From sequence record NC_019706.1: 42,780 nt of DNA; one strand, written 5' to 3'. The DNA is from Enterobacteria phage mEp043 c-1. Shown one piece after another: positions 2,816 through 28,572 of the stretch (positions are counted from its first letter, which is position 1; each line of letters starts with the position of its first letter). The notes beneath the pieces are model-generated. The model made no database searches and had not been told where the DNA came from. It was given only the letters and a program-made list of their open reading frames with translations. Made by a program: the position numbers and the translations under genes.

Positions 2816-4311
2816 GTTTTTTAGATGATGCGATAGGCCTGTTTTCACCAGGCTGGAAAGCCTCACGCCTGCGTGCCCGCGCAGTTATTAAGGCGTATGA
2901 GGCGGTAAAGCAAACGCGTACCCACAAAGCCCAGAAGGAAAATCGTTCAGCCGATCAGCTCAGCCAGATGGGGGCGGTTTCACTGAGGCAGCAGGCGCGC
3001 TGGCTGGACAACAACCACGATCTGGTGATTGGCGTTTTCGACAAGCTGGAAGAAAGGGTGGTGGGTGCGAAGGGCATCATAGTTGAACCGCATCCGATGC
3101 TGACTAACGGGAAGATAGCTAAAAAGCTGGCCACTGACATCCGCAGAAAGTGGGGCGAATGGTCCGTAAGACCCGATGTTACAACCCAGTTTACCCGCCC
3201 CATGCTGGAGCGGCTGATGCTGCGAACGTGGCTCCGGGACGGTGAGGTATTTGCTCAGCTGGTTCGCGGTACCGGAAATGGTCTTCAGCCGGTTGCTGGC
3301 GTGCCGTTCTGGCTGGAAGCGCTGGAGCCGGACTTCGTGCCGATGAACAGCGATGCCGCCACCCAGCTCAATCAGGGCGTTTTTGTCGATAACTGGGGGC
3401 GCCCGAAAAAATATCAGGTCTATAAAAGCCTGCCAGTATCCGGGCGTCAGTTCGATACCAAAGAGATAGATGCAGAAAACATGCTGCATCTCAAATTCAC
3501 ACGACGCCTGCACCAGACCCGCGGAACGTCTCTATTGTCAGGTGTTCTGATGCGTCTGAGCGCGCTGAAAGAGTACGAGGACTCGGAGCTTACTGCTGCC
3601 AGAATTGCTGCGGCACTCGGCATGTATATCAAAAAAGGCGACGGACAGAGCTTCGATTCTGATTCAAGCAGCGATGACCGCGAGCTGATGATTCAGCCCG
3701 GTATGCTCTATGACGAACTGCAGGCCGGGGAAGAAATCGGGATGATTAAATCCGATCGCCCGAACCCTAACCTCGAATCTTTTCGTAACGGACAGCTGCG
3801 TGCCGTGTCCGCCGGCAGTCGCCTCAGCTTTTCCAGCACATCCAGAAACTACAACGGAACGTACAGTGCCCAGCGGCAGGAGCTTGTCGAGTCAACCGAC
3901 GGATATCTGATTCTTCAGGACTGGTTCATCGGTTCAGTGACCCGGCCCATGTACCGGGCCTGGCTGAAGATGGCTATTGCTGCCGGAGAAATCAAGCTGC
4001 CGAGAGGCATCGATATGGACTCGCTTTATAACGCGGTTTATTCGGGGCCCGTTATGCCGTGGATTGATCCCGTTAAAGAAGCGAATGCCTGGAAAACGCA
4101 GATCCGCGGCGGTGCTGCTACTGAATCCGACTGGATACGTGCCAGCGGTCGCAACCCGGATGATGTTAAGTCACGCCGTAAAGCGGAGGTTGACGAGAAC
4201 CGTGAACAGGGACTGGTGTTTGACACCGACCCCGCCAATGATAAAGGAGGCACCAGTGCCGAAGCCAAAGAACCGGGCGCGCCACCGTCCGAAAGCCAGC
4301 GCAAAAAGTAA
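2812..4311 (+). CDS. Portal protein (gpB-like)
   Basis: 499-aa ORF following terminase and W in conserved head-gene order; acidic C-terminal tail. Confidence 0.85.
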   Translation: MSFLDDAIGLFSPGWKASRLRARAVIKAYEAVKQTRTHKAQKENRSADQLSQMGAVSLRQQARWLDNNHDLVIGVFDKLEERVVGAKGIIVEPHPMLTNGKIAKKLATDIRRKWGEWSVRPDVTTQFTRPMLERLMLRTWLRDGEVFAQLVRGTGNGLQPVAGVPFWLEALEPDFVPMNSDAATQLNQGVFVDNWGRPKKYQVYKSLPVSGRQFDTKEIDAENMLHLKFTRRLHQTRGTSLLSGVLMRLSALKEYEDSELTAARIAAALGMYIKKGDGQSFDSDSSSDDRELMIQPGMLYDELQAGEEIGMIKSDRPNPNLESFRNGQLRAVSAGSRLSFSSTSRNYNGTYSAQRQELVESTDGYLILQDWFIGSVTRPMYRAWLKMAIAAGEIKLPRGIDMDSLYNAVYSGPVMPWIDPVKEANAWKTQIRGGAATESDWIRASGRNPDDVKSRRKAEVDENREQGLVFDTDPANDKGGTSAEAKEPGAPPSESQRKK

Positions 4312-4324
4312 TTCGTGGTTCCGC

Positions 4325-6271
4325 ATGCAGGCCAGCAATAACAGCGAGGCCGACATTTTTATCTATGACGAAATCGGGTACTGGGGCGTAACGGCGAAAC
4401 AGTTCGTCAATGATCTCCGGGCACTTGGGGACGTCACCCACATCAACCTTTATATCAACTCGCCAGGTGGTGATGTCTTCGACGGTATTGCTATTTATAA
4501 CGCGCTGAAGCACCACGGCGCGGCGATTACCGTGCATATCGACGGTCTCGCGGCCTCCATGGCCTCGGTGATTGCGATGGTAGGCAATCCGGTCATCATG
4601 CCTGAAAACACGATGATGATGATCCATAAGCCCTGGGGGTTTGCTGGTGGTGACGCGAGCGATATGCGCGACTATGCAGATCTTCTCGACAAGGTTGAAT
4701 CCGTTCTTATCCCGGCTTATGCGCAGAAAACCGGAAAATCCACCGAAGAAATTGCGGCAATGCTGGAGGACGAAACCTGGATGAACGGCAGCGAGTGCCT
4801 TGAACTGGGTTTTGCCGACCAGGTGACACCATCCCTTCAGGCTATGGCCTGTATTCATTCAAAACGTATTGAGGAATTTGAAAAAATGCCAAAAAGCATT
4901 CGCAACATGATCACCCCGCCGCGCAACACTACCCAGCGTGACCCGGTTATTACCCAGCCTCAGGAACCGCAGGCAAAAACAGACCCGGCACCGGATGAAA
5001 ATGTGATCCGCGCGCAGGTGTTGGCTGAGCAGAAAGCCCGTGTTAACGCTATCGGCGATCTCTTTGCCATGTTCGGCAATAAGCACATGGAACTGCAGAA
5101 TCAGTGTGTGGCCGACCCTGATTGTTCCGTCGATAAGGCGAAAGATTTGCTGCTGGCAGAACTCGGTAAAACGGCCACGCCGTCCAATAAAACCACCCAG
5201 CCGCATATTCATGCGGGCAATGGTAACTTCGTCGCGGATGGTATTCGCCAGGCACTGATGGCGCGTGCCGGGTTCGAAGGTCAGGAGCGGGATAACGTTT
5301 ATAACGGTATGACGCTGCGCGAGTATGCGCGTATGGCCCTGACTGAAAAAGGTATCGGCGTGGCCAGCTACAACCCGATGCAGATGGTTGGCCTGGCGCT
5401 GACCCACAGCACCTCTGACTTTGGCAACATTCTGCTTGATGTTGCGAACAAAGCGCTGATTCAGGGCTGGGACGAGGCGCAGGAAACCTTCGAACAGTGG
5501 ACCAAAAAAGGCCAGCTGTCGGACTTCAAAACGGCGCATCGTGTCGGCATGGGTGGTTTCCCTTCTCTGCGACAGGTTCGCGAAGGGGCTGAGTACAAGT
5601 ACATCACTACCAGTGACAAAGGCGAAACCATCGCGCTTGCCACGTATGGTGAAATCTTCTCAGTAACCCGCCAGGCGATCATCAACGACGATCTGAACCA
5701 GCTTACCGACGTACCGATGAAGATGGGGCGCGCGGCGAAAGCAACGATTGGCGATCTGGTTTACGCCATTCTGACCAAAAACCCGAAACTCTCAGACGGA
5801 AAGGCGCTGTTCCATGCCGATCACAAGAACCTGAGCTCGGGCGCAATTTCTGTGGCCAGCCTGGACGAATCGCGCAAGCTGATGCGTCTGCAGAAGGAGA
5901 GGGAGCGAACCCTGAATATCCGTCCGGCCTACATGCTGGTGCCCGTCGCCCTGGAAACTCTGGCAAATCAGACCATCAAGTCGGCCAGTGTTAAAGGTGC
6001 AGACATCAATGCCGGGATCGTTAACCCTATCCAGAACTTTGCAGAAGTCATTGCCGAACCACGCCTGGATGAAGCTGATGCGAAAGCCTGGTATCTGGCT
6101 GCCGCGAAGGGCACCGACACCATCGAGGTCGCTTATCTCAACGGCGTCGACACGCCATACATCGATCAGCAGGAAGGCTTCACCACTGATGGTATCGCCA
6201 CGAAAGTGCGTATTGATGCCGGTGTGGCGCCGCTGGACTATCGCGGCATGACCAAATCCTCTGGTCAGTAA
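4325..6271 (+). CDS. Prohead protease (ClpP/S14-like) fused to a major capsid protein domain
   Basis: First in-frame ATG after the portal stop. N-terminal region has ClpP-like motifs (INSPGGDV, GLAASMAS, MIHKPWG); C-terminal about 330 aa resemble Mu gpT-type major head subunit. The track ORF 3977-6271 has a 5' extension overlapping the portal that is probably not translated. Confidence 0.8.
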   Translation: MQASNNSEADIFIYDEIGYWGVTAKQFVNDLRALGDVTHINLYINSPGGDVFDGIAIYNALKHHGAAITVHIDGLAASMASVIAMVGNPVIMPENTMMMIHKPWGFAGGDASDMRDYADLLDKVESVLIPAYAQKTGKSTEEIAAMLEDETWMNGSECLELGFADQVTPSLQAMACIHSKRIEEFEKMPKSIRNMITPPRNTTQRDPVITQPQEPQAKTDPAPDENVIRAQVLAEQKARVNAIGDLFAMFGNKHMELQNQCVADPDCSVDKAKDLLLAELGKTATPSNKTTQPHIHAGNGNFVADGIRQALMARAGFEGQERDNVYNGMTLREYARMALTEKGIGVASYNPMQMVGLALTHSTSDFGNILLDVANKALIQGWDEAQETFEQWTKKGQLSDFKTAHRVGMGGFPSLRQVREGAEYKYITTSDKGETIALATYGEIFSVTRQAIINDDLNQLTDVPMKMGRAAKATIGDLVYAILTKNPKLSDGKALFHADHKNLSSGAISVASLDESRKLMRLQKERERTLNIRPAYMLVPVALETLANQTIKSASVKGADINAGIVNPIQNFAEVIAEPRLDEADAKAWYLAAAKGTDTIEVAYLNGVDTPYIDQQEGFTTDGIATKVRIDAGVAPLDYRGMTKSSGQ

Positions 6272-15206: not shown

Positions 15207-18200
15207 ATGGGTGAAAAAATGCAGCTTCTTAAACAAGAAACCATCCTGCAGGGTGCCAAAGGGGGAGGTGGCAGTTCACATACTCCTGTTGAGCAGCCTG
15301 ACGATCTGTTGTCGGTCGCAAAATTAAAAATGCTCATTGCCGTTTCTGAGGGGGAAATACAGGGCGACCTGACCGCTCAGAATATTTTTCTCAACGATAC
15401 GCCGCTGGCAAACGACAGCGGGGAATACAACTTCAGCGGCGTGAAATGGGAGTTCCGCAAGGGCACACAGGACCAGACCTATATTGCCGGGATGCCCCAG
15501 GTCGACAACGAGCTGGCCGTGGGCACAACTGTCACCACCACCGCGCCCTGGACGCGCCAGTTTACAAACCTTTCCCTGGATGCCATCCGTATCAAGCTCA
15601 GCCTTCCGGTCCAGTATCTCTATAAAGATAATGGCGATATGGTGGGCACGGTCACCGAGTATGCGATCGATTTATCAACGGACGGCGGCGCCTGGAAAAC
15701 GGTTGTAAACGGCAAGTTTGACGGAAAGACCAAGACGGAATATCAGCGTGACCACCGTATCGATCTGCCAAAATCCACGTCCGGCTGGTCTGTCAGGGTC
15801 AGGCGTATTACGGCTGATGCCAGCGGATCAAATTCGAAACTGGTTAACGCCTTCAAGGTGTTTTCGTATGCGGAAGTCATCGACAGCAAGCTTCGTTATC
15901 CTTTAACAGCGCTCCTGTATGTCGAAGTGGACAGCAGCCAATTCAACGGCAGCGCGCCGAAAGTGACCTGTAAGATAAAAGGCAAGCTGATTAAGGTTCC
16001 GGATAATTACGATCCGAAAACCCGAACCTATTCTGGTTCATGGTCCGGCGGGTTCAAAATGGCATGGTCCAATAACCCTGCCTGGATCTTTTACGATCTG
16101 GTTCTGGATGAAATTTACGGCATGGGCACGCGCGTGGATGCGTCCATGGTGGATAAGTGGGCGCTGTATTCAATCGCCCAGTACTGTGACGAAATGGTTT
16201 CCGACGGGGCCGGTGGCACCGAACCGCGTTTCACCTGCAACGTTTTCATTCAGAGCCAGGAGGACGCCTGGCAGGTACTTAACGATCTCGCCGCGGTATT
16301 TCGTGGAATAACGTTCTGGGGCAACGATCAGATTTATGTCCAGGCAGACGTCCCGCAGGACGATGTTGACTGGGTTTATAACGTCTCAAACGTTATCGAT
16401 GGGCTGTTTACTTATGCGGGCGGCTCATACAAGAATCGCTACAGCTCCTGCCTGGTGTCCTGGTCCGATCCGCAGAATCATTACAGCGATACCGTTGAGG
16501 GGGTCTACGATTCGGCGCTGGTAGAGCGTTACGACGTCCGGCAGACGTCCCTGACCGCAATCGGCTGCACCTCGCAAAGTGAAGCGCACCGGCGCGGTCG
16601 CTGGGTATTACTCTCCAATGCCAAAGACGGCACCGTATCGTTTGGCGTGGGGTTGGACGGTTATATCCCTTTGCCCGCTGAAATTATCGGTGTCGCCGAT
16701 CCTTTCCGTTCTGGTAAGGAGAACGGGGGCCGCATAAGCGCGGTCAACGGCCGCCAGATTACCCTTGATCGAGAAATAGACTACGCGGCGAAAGACCGGC
16801 TGGTGGTTAACCTTCCCGACGGAAAAGCCCAGACGCGGACAATCAGCGCGGTGAGCGCCGATAAAAAAACGGTGACGGTGGCTACGGCATTCAGTCAGGT
16901 TCCTGTGGCTGGCGCTGTCTGGGCGATAGACAGTGATAACCTCGCAATACAGTACTTCAGGGTCACCTCAATCGCGGCTAACGACGACAGCACAGGCGGT
17001 TTCACTATTACGGCCGTTCAGCACGATCCAAACAAATATCGTTACATCGATGACGGCGTTCGGGTCGAGTCTCCCCCGATCACCGTCACGCCGATAAGCG
17101 TCCTGTCTGCTCCGAAGAATATCGTGGTGACTGAGAGCGATCATGTGTCTCAGGGGCTGACTGTAGCAAGCCTGGACGTGTCATGGGATAAGGTAGAGGG
17201 CGCAATCCGGTATGTTGCCCAGTGGCGTAAGGACAACGGGGACTGGATAAACGTTCCGGTTACCAGCGCGCAGGGTTTCTCGGTTCAGGGCATTTATTCG
17301 GGCAGCTATGACGTGCGCGTACGGGCACTGAATGCGCAGGATACGTCGTCACCATGGGGATACGGTGAAACAACTTATCTCTCCGGTAAAACGGGAAAAC
17401 CGGGTACTCCGCTCAACTTCCTGGCGACCGAAGATGTGGTCTGGCATATCGACCTGACATGGAAATTTCCGGATGGCTCAGGCGACACGGCCTATACAGA
17501 GATTCAGCGCGCCACAACTGCCGACTACGCCAATCCTGAACTGCTGGTCCTGGTGCCGTACCCGGCTGCAGATTATCAGCATGGCCCCATGCCTGCCGGC
17601 GTTCGCCAGTGGTACCGCGCGCGCCTGATTGACCGTATCGGTAACGCCGGGGACTGGACCGACTGGATCATGGGCACGTCCTCGATAGATGTCAGCGAAA
17701 TAACCAATGACATTCTGGAGGATATGAAAGAGTCGGAAACGTTCAAAGACCTGATCGAGAACGCGGTGGACAGCAACGAAAAAATTGCTGGCATGGCTAA
17801 CGATATCAAACAGGCTAACGACGAACTGGAGCAGCAAGCGAAAGATATCGCCAAAAATGCCCAGGACGTAGGGAAGGTTCAGACCAGCGTTAATGAGCTT
17901 TCCAGCACGGTCGGGAATGTTTCGTCTTCACTCAGTCAGCTTGAGCAGACCGTTGCGACGGCTGATACCGCCCTGGGCCAGCGAATCGACAACATCAGCG
18001 TTTCTATGGACGGCATGACGGGCGGGGTGAAGAACTCTGCAATTGCGATAATCCAGGCCAACCTCGCTCAGGTGGCCACGCGTAAAACCCTTTCTGCATC
18101 GGTCGCCGGCAACAGCGCGAATCTGGACCGTATTGATGAGGTGATTGTCAACGACAGGGAGGCAACGGCGCGCTCGCTGCTGAGCCTGCAGACGGACGTT

Positions 18201-18887
18201 AACGGCAACAAGGCATCCATAAACAGCCTGAATCAGACGTTCTCCGACTATCAGCAGGCAACGGCGCGCTCGCTGCTGAGCCTGCAGACGGACGTTAACG
18301 GCAACAAGGCATCCATAAACAGCCTGAATCAGACGTTCTCCGACTATCAGCAGGCAACGGCCACGCAGATAAACGGCATCACGGCGACCGTGAACGGGCA
18401 TACCTCAGCCATCACCACTAATGCTCAGGCGATAGCCAACGTTAATGGCGACCTCAGCGCGATGTATAACATCAAGGTTGGCGTAACCAGTAACGGGCAG
18501 TATTACGCTGCCGGGATGGGGATTGGGGTTCAGAATACACCCTCCGGCATGCAGTCACAGGTAATATTCCTGGCCGACCGATTTGCTGTTACCACTGCTG
18601 CCGGAAACAGCGTGGCGTTACCATTTGTGATCCAGAATGGTCAGACGTTCATCAGGGCCAGCTTCATTCAGGACGGTACCATTGAGAACGCCAAAATCGG
18701 TAACTATATCCAGTCGAATAACTATGTGGCTGGCTCTGCAGGCTGGAAACTTGATAAGGGGGGCACCTGGGAAAACTGCGGCAGCGACGGTCAGGGAGCA
18801 AGAAAATCCACCAATGTCACTGACAGTATCAGGGATTCAAATGGCGTGCTCCGCGTGCAAATCGGCAAACTTACAGGGGTGTTTTGA
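15207..18887 (+). CDS. J: Tail tip / host specificity protein J
   Basis: 1226-aa ORF; N-terminal and central regions resemble recalled lambda gpJ; C-terminal region divergent. Confidence 0.9.
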   Translation: MGEKMQLLKQETILQGAKGGGGSSHTPVEQPDDLLSVAKLKMLIAVSEGEIQGDLTAQNIFLNDTPLANDSGEYNFSGVKWEFRKGTQDQTYIAGMPQVDNELAVGTTVTTTAPWTRQFTNLSLDAIRIKLSLPVQYLYKDNGDMVGTVTEYAIDLSTDGGAWKTVVNGKFDGKTKTEYQRDHRIDLPKSTSGWSVRVRRITADASGSNSKLVNAFKVFSYAEVIDSKLRYPLTALLYVEVDSSQFNGSAPKVTCKIKGKLIKVPDNYDPKTRTYSGSWSGGFKMAWSNNPAWIFYDLVLDEIYGMGTRVDASMVDKWALYSIAQYCDEMVSDGAGGTEPRFTCNVFIQSQEDAWQVLNDLAAVFRGITFWGNDQIYVQADVPQDDVDWVYNVSNVIDGLFTYAGGSYKNRYSSCLVSWSDPQNHYSDTVEGVYDSALVERYDVRQTSLTAIGCTSQSEAHRRGRWVLLSNAKDGTVSFGVGLDGYIPLPAEIIGVADPFRSGKENGGRISAVNGRQITLDREIDYAAKDRLVVNLPDGKAQTRTISAVSADKKTVTVATAFSQVPVAGAVWAIDSDNLAIQYFRVTSIAANDDSTGGFTITAVQHDPNKYRYIDDGVRVESPPITVTPISVLSAPKNIVVTESDHVSQGLTVASLDVSWDKVEGAIRYVAQWRKDNGDWINVPVTSAQGFSVQGIYSGSYDVRVRALNAQDTSSPWGYGETTYLSGKTGKPGTPLNFLATEDVVWHIDLTWKFPDGSGDTAYTEIQRATTADYANPELLVLVPYPAADYQHGPMPAGVRQWYRARLIDRIGNAGDWTDWIMGTSSIDVSEITNDILEDMKESETFKDLIENAVDSNEKIAGMANDIKQANDELEQQAKDIAKNAQDVGKVQTSVNELSSTVGNVSSSLSQLEQTVATADTALGQRIDNISVSMDGMTGGVKNSAIAIIQANLAQVATRKTLSASVAGNSANLDRIDEVIVNDREATARSLLSLQTDVNGNKASINSLNQTFSDYQQATARSLLSLQTDVNGNKASINSLNQTFSDYQQATATQINGITATVNGHTSAITTNAQAIANVNGDLSAMYNIKVGVTSNGQYYAAGMGIGVQNTPSGMQSQVIFLADRFAVTTAAGNSVALPFVIQNGQTFIRASFIQDGTIENAKIGNYIQSNNYVAGSAGWKLDKGGTWENCGSDGQGARKSTNVTDSIRDSNGVLRVQIGKLTGVF
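18162..18353 (+). repeat. Perfect in-frame 96-bp tandem duplication (2 copies) within J
   Basis: 18162-18257 and 18258-18353 are identical, encoding ATARSLLSLQTDVNGNKASINSLNQTFSDYQQ twice; the next 8 nt also match before divergence. Confidence 0.95.
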
Positions 18888-19189
18888 TGTCATGGGGTAT
18901 ACAAACATGGGATGCGTCGGGTAAACCCAACAACTACGGTATCAAGCCAGTTTCAGTTGTTGGGCGTATACAGCTGGCTGCCGGACAAAACTCCGGCAGT
19001 TGGTCTTTCGCGATGCCCTCAGGAATGAAGGTCGGCTTTGTGCTCTCACTTGATGAAGGTGGAAACAGCGTAGGGAGGCGCATTGTCGCGTCAGGGAACA
19101 CAATAACCGTAACCGCTGCCTCTTCTGTAGGCCTAGGTAATTACCCGGCCTCTAAGTGTGAGGTGATCGTTTTCATGGAGAAAGTATAG
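18887..19189 (+). CDS. Hypothetical protein downstream of J
   Basis: 100 aa; ATG overlaps the J stop (TGATG); contains a WDASGK motif shared with the next ORF. Confidence 0.5.
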   Translation: MSWGIQTWDASGKPNNYGIKPVSVVGRIQLAAGQNSGSWSFAMPSGMKVGFVLSLDEGGNSVGRRIVASGNTITVTAASSVGLGNYPASKCEVIVFMEKV

Positions 19190-19863
19190 TGTCTGACTTT
19201 GGCGCAATGATATTAATGGAGAACGGCAATCCCTTTGTTACACCACAATCAACGCCTTTCTGCCTCTACGGAAAATACTCCTTCAATTCCTCAGCTAATG
19301 GCAGCTCTCAGCAGGTGGCGCAATATCTTTCGGTTCCTGACGATTATCCGGCAATGGTCTTCATAAAAACGACTAATACTGCGCAGCCGACCCCGGTCAT
19401 TTCATATCGGATTGGAGGAAATGTCTATATTAGTGGCGTAAATCCCTATAACCAGGGCTTTACGCTGACAGCATATGTATTTGCAATTTTTCCGCAAACA
19501 CTTCCCGCGTGGGGATTTGCTATCTGGGATGCCTCCGGGAAGCTTGTTCTGACGAACGAATCAAGGGTGCTTTCTGATCTGCAAACAGTGGGCACGCCAG
19601 GTGCAAGCGGCGGGATTAATATTGACCAGACGCTGAGCGGGTCATGGGCTGTTGCGCCTGCTCAGTTGGGTCAGACCATCATTGTGAATAATTCAACCAA
19701 GCCTCCGACTATCTACACGATAAATGCTTATTCTTCATGCAGGTTTGACGGGGCCAATACGAGGATAAACGCAGGGGGGACCTCCACTGGGGCAGGTTCA
19801 CCTGGAGGGGGAACGAATACTGGCATTTCATTAACCGCCATAAATACAGCGGCCTATGATTGA
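19189..19863 (+). CDS. Hypothetical protein (tail-associated?)
   Basis: 224 aa; GTG start overlapping the upstream stop, GGAG RBS at 19177-19180; internal WDASGK motif; Gly/Thr-rich C-terminus. Confidence 0.5.
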   Translation: MSDFGAMILMENGNPFVTPQSTPFCLYGKYSFNSSANGSSQQVAQYLSVPDDYPAMVFIKTTNTAQPTPVISYRIGGNVYISGVNPYNQGFTLTAYVFAIFPQTLPAWGFAIWDASGKLVLTNESRVLSDLQTVGTPGASGGINIDQTLSGSWAVAPAQLGQTIIVNNSTKPPTIYTINAYSSCRFDGANTRINAGGTSTGAGSPGGGTNTGISLTAINTAAYD

Positions 19864-19974: not shown

Positions 19975-20208
19975 ATGAGAAAACTGATTATCTGCATGGC
20001 AGGCGCTGTCATGCTTACAGGATGCGCTGGCGTAATTGAGAAACAGGAACCAGTTTGCAGCGGCACTGCAATCGTTGGCGGTCAGGAAACTACGGTTCAG
20101 ATTTACGGTGTGCGTAAACAAAACAACCAGACGCAGTACCGGGCTGGATATCCTTTCAGCTGGCGCTGGGTAAGTGCGAATACATTTACCGAAACAACCT
20201 GCAAATAA
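19975..20208 (+). CDS. Small secreted lipoprotein (Cor-like superinfection-exclusion candidate)
   Basis: 77 aa; signal peptide with lipobox (LTGC); AT-rich moron immediately downstream of the J cluster, followed by its own terminator. Confidence 0.55.
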   Translation: MRKLIICMAGAVMLTGCAGVIEKQEPVCSGTAIVGGQETTVQIYGVRKQNNQTQYRAGYPFSWRWVSANTFTETTCK

Positions 20209-22031: not shown

Positions 22032-22077
22032 ATTCGTAATGCGAAGGTCGTAGGTTCGACTCCTATTATCGGCACCA
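22032..22077 (+). other. attP core: 3' 46 nt of a tRNA-Thr(CGU) gene (thrW-like), not a complete tRNA
   Basis: ATTCGTAATGCGAAGGTCGTAGGTTCGACTCCTATTATCGGCACCA matches recalled thrW from the anticodon loop to the CCA end; no complementary 5' acceptor strand upstream; integrase gene lies 15 nt away. Confidence 0.75.
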
Positions 22078-27583: not shown

Positions 27584-27967
27584 TTAGAAGGGAATTGAAT
27601 CGTCGTATTCAGGATGATTTTGATGATTGCTACTTTGCTGCTGTTGGCTGTTTCCTGAAGTTGCAAATCCAATCTTTGCATTCAGTAATTCAAGAGTGAT
27701 TGATTGACCATTTTGCCCCTGATAAACATCAACCCTGATGTTTTCTCCGGTAATTTCCACAATGCCACCTTCAACAAGAACACTACGGTAGTAATCCGCT
27801 TGCGCTCCTGGCTTGGCAAATACAACGGCGCTGTAGTTTGTCCATTCTTTCTTTTTTGTCTGGCGATCGTAATACTGAACGCCAGCACGGATGTTGAATC
27901 CGATATTTTCCCCGGCCTGAAACTCTCTTGCGGGTTTGTTTAGTCTTACAGTAATCGAATGTGCCAT
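27584..27967 (-). CDS. Single-stranded DNA-binding protein (phage SSB-like)
   Basis: 127 aa from the ATG overlapping the erf stop (TAATG); Gln-rich linker and C-terminal acidic tail ending DDSIPF. Confidence 0.65.
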   Translation of the reverse strand: MAHSITVRLNKPAREFQAGENIGFNIRAGVQYYDRQTKKKEWTNYSAVVFAKPGAQADYYRSVLVEGGIVEITGENIRVDVYQGQNGQSITLELLNAKIGFATSGNSQQQQSSNHQNHPEYDDSIPF

Positions 27968-28572
27968 TAAGCAGCCGCTCCTTCTAATTCGTCTCGTCTG
28001 ATGTTGTAAACGTCCTGCGCTTTGTGCTGCTCCGGTGTTCCTTCGAGCATCTTCCACGCTTTGGCGAACGCCTGTTTAAGCTCTTCCACGGTGTTTTTCT
28101 GCATTGCTGCGTCAGTGAATGCTTTTAGAACCTGTTCAGGTGTAGGTGATGGTTTTGATTGCTTTGCTACTGCGTTCTGCTGATGTTTATGCTCGTCTGT
28201 ATCTGCATCTTTCGCATCATCAATGCCGAACAAACCATTGAGGCAATACTTGCGTGCATAAGAGCTTGTAGCTCCCGTAACTTGTGCAGAATCCATCCCT
28301 TTCTTGCTTTCTTCCTCTCGTGCAAGAGCGGTTGCCGTATGACTGTTTTCGCCATCGGTAATAGTTGCCGTGGCTTTCACGTAATACCGATCACCAATCA
28401 ACACAACTTCATCGCTGATTGATAAAAACAGGCCATTCAGTAACGGCTTAACGCCTTCAAGAATGTCTTCGCAGCTTCTGTATTTATATTTTCCGAATGA
28501 GTTGTACTGATTCTTTGGCGCGTTCAGATTTTCCTGAATAGCTGCCAGTCTTGCGTAAAATTCTTTGCTCAT
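27967..28572 (-). CDS. erf: Erf single-strand annealing recombination protein
   Basis: Closely matches recalled P22 Erf (MSKEFYARLA.IQE.LNAPKNQYNSFGKYKYRSCEDILEGVKPLL); start taken at the Met matching the P22 N-terminus. Confidence 0.9.
   Translation of the reverse strand: MSKEFYARLAAIQENLNAPKNQYNSFGKYKYRSCEDILEGVKPLLNGLFLSISDEVVLIGDRYYVKATATITDGENSHTATALAREEESKKGMDSAQVTGATSSYARKYCLNGLFGIDDAKDADTDEHKHQQNAVAKQSKPSPTPEQVLKAFTDAAMQKNTVEELKQAFAKAWKMLEGTPEQHKAQDVYNIRRDELEGAAA

Follow-up and report, generated by a model that had tools for sequence, protein, structure and literature searches.

The sequence analysed here, referred to as the window, is the 42,780-nucleotide record of Enterobacteria phage mEp043 c-1 (NC_019706.1), and the element under study is a perfect tandem repeat in its gene J, which encodes the central tail fibre. 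The J sequence is identical to mEp213_018, which is annotated as 'central tail fiber'. Three Pfam domains were detected in J, all exceeding their curated cut-offs, in the order FNIII-A_GpJ (PF24801, residues 99-226, E = 1.3e-40), Phage-tail_3 (PF13550, residues 350-513, E = 5.8e-13) and Phage_Tail_Tip (PF09327, residues 1068-1205, E = 5.9e-49). J also matched tip proteins in the PDB, namely T1 gp33 (E = 1.5e-292), the F2-pyocin fibre (E = 5.9e-284) and lambda gpJ (E = 2.2e-125), and the annotation of the identical left arm (JQ182733) and the gene neighbourhood place it after homologues of M, L, K and I in the tail cluster. Domain order, homology and position in the tail cluster together identify J as a predicted lambda-type tip protein of the TipJ/lambda gpJ family.

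The repeat was found by three approaches. Tandem Repeats Finder reported a period-96 tandem repeat at 18160-18361 (2.1 copies, 100% matches, 0 indels, score 404), which is the sole repeat with a period above 21 bp in the whole window, and a second row of its output stretched the array to 18384 at 90% identity. A second repeat search returned 18160-18255 and 18256-18351 as 100% identical, and a base-by-base script showed that the period-96 identity spans exactly 18160 to 18361. Position 18162 is base 1 of J codon 986, and 18162-18353 corresponds to codons 986-1049, which translate as ATARSLLSLQTDVNGNKASINSLNQTFSDYQQ twice, each unit having 32 residues (96 bp) and lying in frame in J. Repeat finders, translation and direct comparison thus all reproduced the perfect 96-bp in-frame duplication of two 32-codon units that a first-pass annotation had described from the sequence. 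A perfect 96-bp tandem copy in 42.8 kb cannot have arisen by chance. The 10-mer AGGCAACGGC recurs at 18160, 18256 and 18352, that is, at the opening of each copy and directly after copy 2, and the breakpoints are therefore ambiguous within 10 bp.

The first-pass annotation had placed the repeat in a C-terminal coiled region between the conserved body of J and a divergent receptor-binding end. The Pfam layout and the PDB homologues agree with the first part of this description, putting the repeat in a helical shaft that follows the hub and FNIII body and precedes the C-terminal end. The second part needs refinement: the repeat is followed by the conserved Phage_Tail_Tip domain, and only beyond this domain come the last ~40 residues, which are truly divergent. 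Megablast similarity to the J genes of HK97, HK022 and HK106 ends at window position 18763 (query position 964), and the alignment of J to T1 gp33 reaches the C-terminus.

Copy number in records and relatives

Two copies of the unit were found in the window, in JQ182733.1 (mEp213) and in PV340538.1 (mEp213), the last being a separate deposit with another length and start point. J of the JQ182733 mEp213 record differed from that of the window at 0 of 3681 nt, and the exact two-copy protein is deposited as AFM76358.1 (mEp213), AFM76432.1 and WP_016063066.1. To judge by its number, AFM76432.1 is the 18th protein of the record that follows mEp213 in the same batch. It is found on three contigs, one of 1.29 Mb. 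Three perfect copies were found in PV340537.1 (mEp043), whose J has 1258 residues. Across its 42,780 bases the window showed 100.000% identity to PV340537.1 and not a single mismatch, and the extra 96-bp unit and a 4-bp overlap at the permutation were the only differences, so that three and two copies occur in otherwise identical genomes.

We then compared related J genes and found a single copy in HK106 and Eeyore (by alignment), in 33 other matching phage records (record span 95-96 nt below the query), in 37 complete E. coli genomes (505 nt span versus a 601-nt query) and in the closest 80 IMG/VR loci, which had no tandem repeat in the shaft. In total, about 200 relatives were single-copy, and the unit was present once in 74 of the 76 database proteins that contain its first 12 residues. 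Searches with the junction-specific sequence gave 0 matches in genome contigs and 0 in metagenome contigs, and viral contigs gave mEp213 alone; the three-copy protein was absent from a collection of 15 billion proteins. No paper describing the J repeat was found, the papers mentioning mEp213 or mEp043 do not discuss it, and a literature search on the PV3405xx accessions found nothing.

Relatives are thus single-copy and members of the mEp043/mEp213 lineage have two or three copies. As judged from these sequences, the duplication is real, limited to this lineage and very recent. The first-pass annotation had taken the absence of any mismatch as a mark of a very recent duplication and of a substrate for copy-number change. 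The age agrees with the single copy in about 200 relatives, and the change in copy number agrees with the three copies of PV340537.1, which is otherwise the same as the window (a miscount being possible). An assembly artefact, which would have undone the claim, is unlikely for the two-copy state, as it is present in several independent records. The difference between two and three copies could be either biological or a miscount by the assembler; one accession series gives three copies for mEp043 and two for mEp213, which speaks against a systematic error.

Several features of these records were observed in addition. The left ~30 kb of the window is 99.93% identical to mEp213, the first 22 kb, including J, being without any difference, and the immunity/replication region is different; two Aguilavirus 'species' thus share an identical virion module. 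UniProt assigns the exact J protein to two Aguilavirus species, and the genus comprises mEp043 and mEp213 only. mEp043 c-1 is a clear-plaque mutant that was used for the older sequencing (PMC9836094). The 2025 records PV340537.1 and PV340538.1 are permuted to begin at the attP/integrase region (window 22058-22061) and, the repeat unit aside, are 4 bp longer than the older records owing to a 4-bp overlap at their ends. These PV records may derive from lysogens, which would imply a clonal bottleneck, or from rotated circular assemblies. For the C-terminal region of J, most of the top-ranking database homologues carry the label 'partial', many of them on contigs of only 2-5 kb, and short-read assemblies could often break in or near the J gene.

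The 32-residue period of the shaft and fold-switching fibres

The C-terminal ~180 residues of the shaft are built on a 32-residue period. Autocorrelation and Fourier analysis were performed on a version of the shaft with a single copy of the unit. The BLOSUM62 autocorrelation peaked at lag 32 (z = 5.3), followed by lags 25, 64, 39, 57 and 7, of which 25, 39 and 57 lie one heptad away from 32 or 64, and the strongest hydrophobic (Fourier) period was 3.56 residues, equal to 32/9. The 32-residue period is older than the duplication and represents nine helical turns, that is, four heptads plus a four-residue stutter. The duplicated unit is exactly one native period and begins at the (E/Q)-A-T-A common to every period. 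Because every native period starts alike with these residues, near-identical 10-mers (AGGCAACGGC) lie 96 bp apart, which accounts for the 10-bp microhomology.

A related arrangement has been documented in the F-type pyocins. In the F7 pyocin central fibre, a coiled coil switches to a beta-prism in which every strand carries SxSxxMxxLxS, a motif that runs in the same sense as its strand. Of 24 central fibres of phages, 21 were predicted to switch in a similar way, those of HK639 and mEp390 among them (He et al., PMC12874032). The switch, described only in 2026, was proposed as an energy source for envelope penetration by non-contractile tails (PMC12874032). We scored J for this motif with residue classes derived from the percentages in that paper and with a scoring scheme of our own. 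Each repeat unit contained one forward (F) and one reverse (R) motif. Matches at 5/5 positions were found at F954, R971, F986, R1003, F1018, R1035 and F1050, in strict alternation and with a spacing of 17/15 residues; in the older module upstream of the repeat the forward motif reads AQVATRKTLSA and the reverse motif ANLDRIDEVIV. With one copy removed, the 163-residue shaft held 8 full matches, versus 6 in the other ~1030 residues, and 8 matches were reached by 3 of 2000 residue shuffles of the shaft. The same alternation of forward and reverse motifs was also present in T1 gp33, in the F2-pyocin fibre and in J of a prophage of E. coli ET245. In terms of the beta-prism, one unit would be a forward strand plus a reverse strand, or one hairpin, if the shaft switches. 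The duplication may be tolerated because a whole period preserves the register in either conformation.

We modelled J residues 827-1226 as a monomer with AlphaFold2 (AF2) from an alignment of 55 sequences. The model had a mean predicted local distance difference test (pLDDT) score of 55.6 and a predicted template modelling (pTM) score of 0.22, with long helices at J 830-929 and 983-1030 and a pLDDT of 74-81 over 983-1016 and low elsewhere. It gives weak support to a helical resting state. The hydrophobic period of 3.56 and the helical segments of this monomer model are consistent with a trimeric coiled coil in the resting state. The model was not used for fold searches, as its confidence was low and the identical copies were modelled differently.

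J 979-1196 aligned to residues 980-1194 of the F2-pyocin fibre (25vf_A, E = 7.7e-29), of which residues 907-1084 form a trimeric coiled coil that bears side fibres and was resolved by cryo-electron microscopy (cryo-EM; PDB 25vf), and a small protein encoded downstream binds the distal end of this coiled coil. HK639 J, one of the fibres for which a switch was predicted, was 69% identical to the C-terminal region of this J over 98% of the region. J thus has two features of fold-switching fibres, namely the F-pyocin homology of its last ~400 residues and the alternating SxSxxMxxLxS motif.

The likeness to the F-type pyocin central fibre (F7 PyoF10; F2 PA0641, PDB 25vf; He et al. 2026 preprint, PMC12874032; bioRxiv 10.64898/2026.02.24.707460) extends over nearly the full length (J 14-1196 to 5-1194, E = 5.9e-284), with shaft and distal domain in register. 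It includes the alternation of forward and reverse motifs at 17/15 spacing, a small protein encoded downstream and side fibres encoded nearby. The two systems also differ, as the pyocin is a tailocin of Pseudomonas and J is a phage protein with an E. coli host. The fold switch has been shown for the F7 pyocin, whereas for J it would be a prediction from motif and homology, and the pyocin modules have diverged, whereas J has identical tandem copies.

T1 gp33 (PDB 9l9p) is only ~35% identical to this J. It shares a homologous C-terminal end and the gene module of J, an open reading frame (ORF) of ~100 residues, an ORF of ~225 residues and cor, and it has its own tandem duplication of a forward-plus-reverse module at the position homologous to the mEp repeat (NC_005833.1, 27809-28029; a 99-bp unit in 2.2 copies). 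The T1 unit differs in having 33 residues, again with one forward and one reverse motif, and its 97% nucleotide identity indicates that it is older; its origin was independent. Cryo-EM left the C-terminus of T1 gp33 (821-1172) unresolved. Lambda gpJ (PDB 8iyk and others) is homologous in the N-terminal hub, the FNIII body and part of the Phage_Tail_Tip domain, whereas it lacks the long coiled-coil shaft. He et al. state that the large fold switch is not seen in lambda (PMC12874032).

Duplications of such modules were also found in two further homologues. J of the E. coli ET245 prophage (NZ_CP100978.1; locus coordinates 3345-4702) has 1613 residues and carries a 288-bp unit (3 x 32 residues) in 4.0 copies with 96% identity. 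The counterpart of the mEp unit lies within this 288-bp unit, and a 126-bp (6-heptad) unit in 1.8 copies with 99% identity lies further upstream. From the length of its match, ET245 had been a candidate for a two-copy allele, and this was rejected on finding the different and larger repeat of 288 bp x4. The 96-residue unit of ET245 has a glycine-rich stretch, SVSMDGMTGGVKNS. Non-coiled breaks may be attachment sites of side fibres (He et al., PMC12874032), and by analogy the ET245 array might multiply docking sites for side fibres. The second homologue, P0115, is a partial J homologue of 431 residues with a 32-residue duplication at residues 75-169, in which the breakpoints are shifted by about half a unit and the unit is NGNKASINSLNQT[F/L]SDYQQATATQINGITATV. 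The duplications in P0115, T1 and ET245 are events independent of the one in mEp. Among close relatives, the same C-terminal region falls into length classes of 336, 369 and 400 residues; three IMG/VR loci (L078, L080 and L082; match 1501-2508) have a region of 336 residues, as a block of ~33 residues that precedes the repeat, TSVNELSSTVGNVSSSLSQLEQTVATADTALGQ, is missing. In this family the length of the shaft varies in steps of ~32 residues. Tandem repeats were found in 1 of 120 protein homologues (P0115) and in the shaft of 0 of 80 IMG/VR loci. These counts led us to reject the idea that such repeats are widespread among J homologues; they recur, but rarely.

Origin of the repeat and competing explanations

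In our reading, to which we assign a probability of roughly 0.75, a single 32-residue structural period of the trimeric helical J shaft was duplicated in tandem and in frame very recently. The first duplication could have occurred by replication slippage or unequal exchange between the 10-mers AGGCAACGGC lying 96 bp apart. Later expansion or contraction would then proceed by misalignment of the perfect 96-bp copies, either through RecA-independent slippage or through the phage's Erf annealing protein, and an Erf-type annealing protein is encoded at 27967-28572. Tandem repeats of ~100 bp recombine in E. coli without RecA. The addition of a whole native period would keep the register of the shaft and the distal domain, and each copy would lengthen the coiled coil that connects the tail-tip hub to the distal receptor-binding assembly by ~4.7 nm (32 x 0.148 nm). 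If J switches fold, each copy would give every face of the prism formed after ejection one more beta-hairpin (two strands, ~1 nm), and the contraction stroke would be ~3.7 nm longer per copy. The repeat may in this way affect the length or geometry of the tail tip, as the first-pass annotation supposed.

Some of our observations weigh against this interpretation or parts of it. The low-confidence AF2 model gives a helix for copy 1 but interrupts it within copy 2, which has the same sequence. Among 82 single-copy relatives, only 2 had a perfect 10-mer at both flanks of the unit, the others differing by 1-3 bases, mostly in the wobble base of an alanine codon, which leaves the initial slippage a proposed step. 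The discrepancy of two versus three copies between two records of one phage could be a miscount by the assembler and not biology. The switch itself was reported in a preprint, with experimental support for the F7 pyocin only, and lambda and T5 do not have it (PMC12874032); for J it would hold if the motif and the homology are a reliable guide.

Alternative explanations concern either the assemblies or the meaning of the repeat. If the whole duplication were an assembly artefact, the true phage would be single-copy and a repeat-like region would have been over-expanded. Tandem repeats are error-prone in assemblies generally, and many database homologues of the region are 'partial' and lie at contig ends; nothing direct supports this explanation. 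We regard it as very improbable, because the identical two-copy J is present in the window, in JQ182733.1 and in the separately deposited PV340538.1, the exact protein lies on three contigs including the one of 1.29 Mb, and a single-copy sequence offers an assembler no repeat to expand. The 192-bp array would also fit within one Sanger or 454 read, if the older records were sequenced in that way. A narrower version accepts that the duplication is real but fixed, and ascribes the difference between two and three copies to a miscount (the array having been collapsed in the older record or expanded in the newer) without ongoing instability. The absence of any other difference in 42.78 kb fits two sequencings of one stock equally well, a 288-bp array is longer than a 150-bp short read, and the three-copy protein is missing from the 15-billion-protein collection. 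On the other side, the PV3405xx series gives three copies for mEp043 and two for mEp213; the consecutive accessions suggest a single pipeline for both, and in that case the pipeline tells the two states apart. The older records are both two-copy, and the independent duplications of the same module in T1, ET245 and P0115 show that the region expands in nature. Such a miscount is unlikely in our view, while retaining a real chance.

The duplication could also be real and functionally neutral, a hitch-hiker in a shaft that tolerates different lengths. This possibility is compatible with the origin proposed above and denies only an adaptive role, and we take it seriously, at odds somewhat below even. 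The repeat is rare, the mEp043/mEp213 lineage standing alone among about 200 relatives; the junction search found it absent from metagenomes, and shaft regions of 336, 369, 400 and more residues coexist, suggesting a loose constraint on length. However, older duplications with 3-4% divergence persist in T1, which is fully viable, and in ET245. All events keep whole modules (32, 33 or 96 residues), pointing to structural selection on what is tolerated, and shaft length would be expected to matter if energy for ejection is stored there (PMC12874032). At the opposite end, the number of modules could be a fast-changing, quantised tuner of a fold-switching fibre, setting the reach by ~4.7 nm per unit and the stroke and stored energy by one hairpin per chain, with lysates that would contain phages of 1, 2, 3 or more copies, from which different hosts select. 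We consider this doubtful. If it were true, the selecting hosts could differ, for example, in the thickness of the O-antigen or capsule above FhuA.

A recent duplication of one structural period, as favoured here, is in itself an ordinary sequence fact, and in-frame tandem duplication in a fibrous phage protein is of a kind already known. A parallel is found in lambda, where, in work by Katsura and Hendrix from 1984, the tape-measure protein gpH reportedly sets tail length. As in that case, residues gained or lost in frame in an extended helical protein would alter a virion dimension in proportion. The J change differs in that it lies in a tail-tip fibre and not in the ruler of the tube, and in that it is a natural perfect repeat with a copy-number polymorphism and not an engineered one. 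The mEp043/mEp213 lineage offers natural, isogenic or nearly isogenic variants with two and three copies of one switch module, and together with the single-copy relatives and the four-fold three-module array of ET245 these complete a ready-made length series in a tractable K-12 phage. With this series it could be asked whether shaft length sets reach, stroke or the efficiency of ejection. As copy number differs between two records of one phage, J assemblies of this type need spanning reads.

Neighbouring genes and other features

The coordinates of J, its parts and the genes that follow it are given in Table 1. The order J, 100-residue ORF, 224-residue ORF and cor is the same module as in T1, HK022 and N15. 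According to references cited in papers that mention mEp213 or mEp043, cor marks FhuA-dependent phages. The short J end probably works with the proteins encoded downstream, an analogy being PA0642 in the F2 pyocin, and receptor recognition probably involves the two small genes downstream of J as well as the short divergent J end. Lambda gpJ binds LamB via its own C-terminal domain.

Table 1. Positions of gene J, the segments of its shaft and the downstream genes in the window (F and R, forward and reverse motifs at the J residue given; n/5, motif positions matched)
Feature	Position	Strand	Basis or remark
Gene J, central tail fibre (tip attachment protein), 1226 aa	15207..18887	+	ORF, Pfam domains, PDB homologues
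Helical shaft of J, ~residues 830-1085	17694..18461	+	AF2 helices, hydrophobic period, F2-pyocin alignment
Older, diverged 32-residue module upstream of the repeat, J 954-985	18066..18161	+	F954 and R971, both 5/5
Repeat copy 1, ATARSLLSLQTDVNGNKASINSLNQTFSDYQQ	18162..18257	+	codons 986-1017; motifs F986, R1003
Repeat copy 2, 100% identical to copy 1	18258..18353	+	codons 1018-1049; motifs F1018, R1035
10-bp microhomology AGGCAACGGC	18160..18169, also 18256-18265, 18352-18361	+	brackets each unit; encodes the (E/Q)-A-T-A module start
Older, diverged 32-residue module downstream of the repeat, J 1050-1081, ATATQINGITA...SAITTNAQAIA	18354..18449	+	F1050 5/5, R1067 4/5
Phage_Tail_Tip domain (PF09327), conserved distal domain, J 1068-1205	18408..18821	+	E = 5.9e-49
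Divergent last ~40 residues of J	18764..18887	+	HK-type similarity ends at 18763; resembles the C-terminus of T1 gp33
100-aa ORF (phrog_557), directly downstream of J	18887..19189	+	same gene after J in T1, HK022, N15
224-aa ORF (phrog_425), second gene downstream of J	19189..19863	+	mEp213 record starts it at 19207
cor, superinfection-exclusion lipoprotein	19975..20208	+	phrog_1119, E = 7e-37

Elsewhere in the window, an ORF of 322 residues on the minus strand (29122-30090), annotated 'TolA' in PV340537.1, encodes an extended segment with a high content of Glu, Ala, Lys and Arg, as in AEEKARSEAEAKAKAEIEAAARREAEAKAAAERAERE. The loose 6-bp repeat reported by Tandem Repeats Finder at 29495-29553 reflects the low-complexity helix of this ORF.

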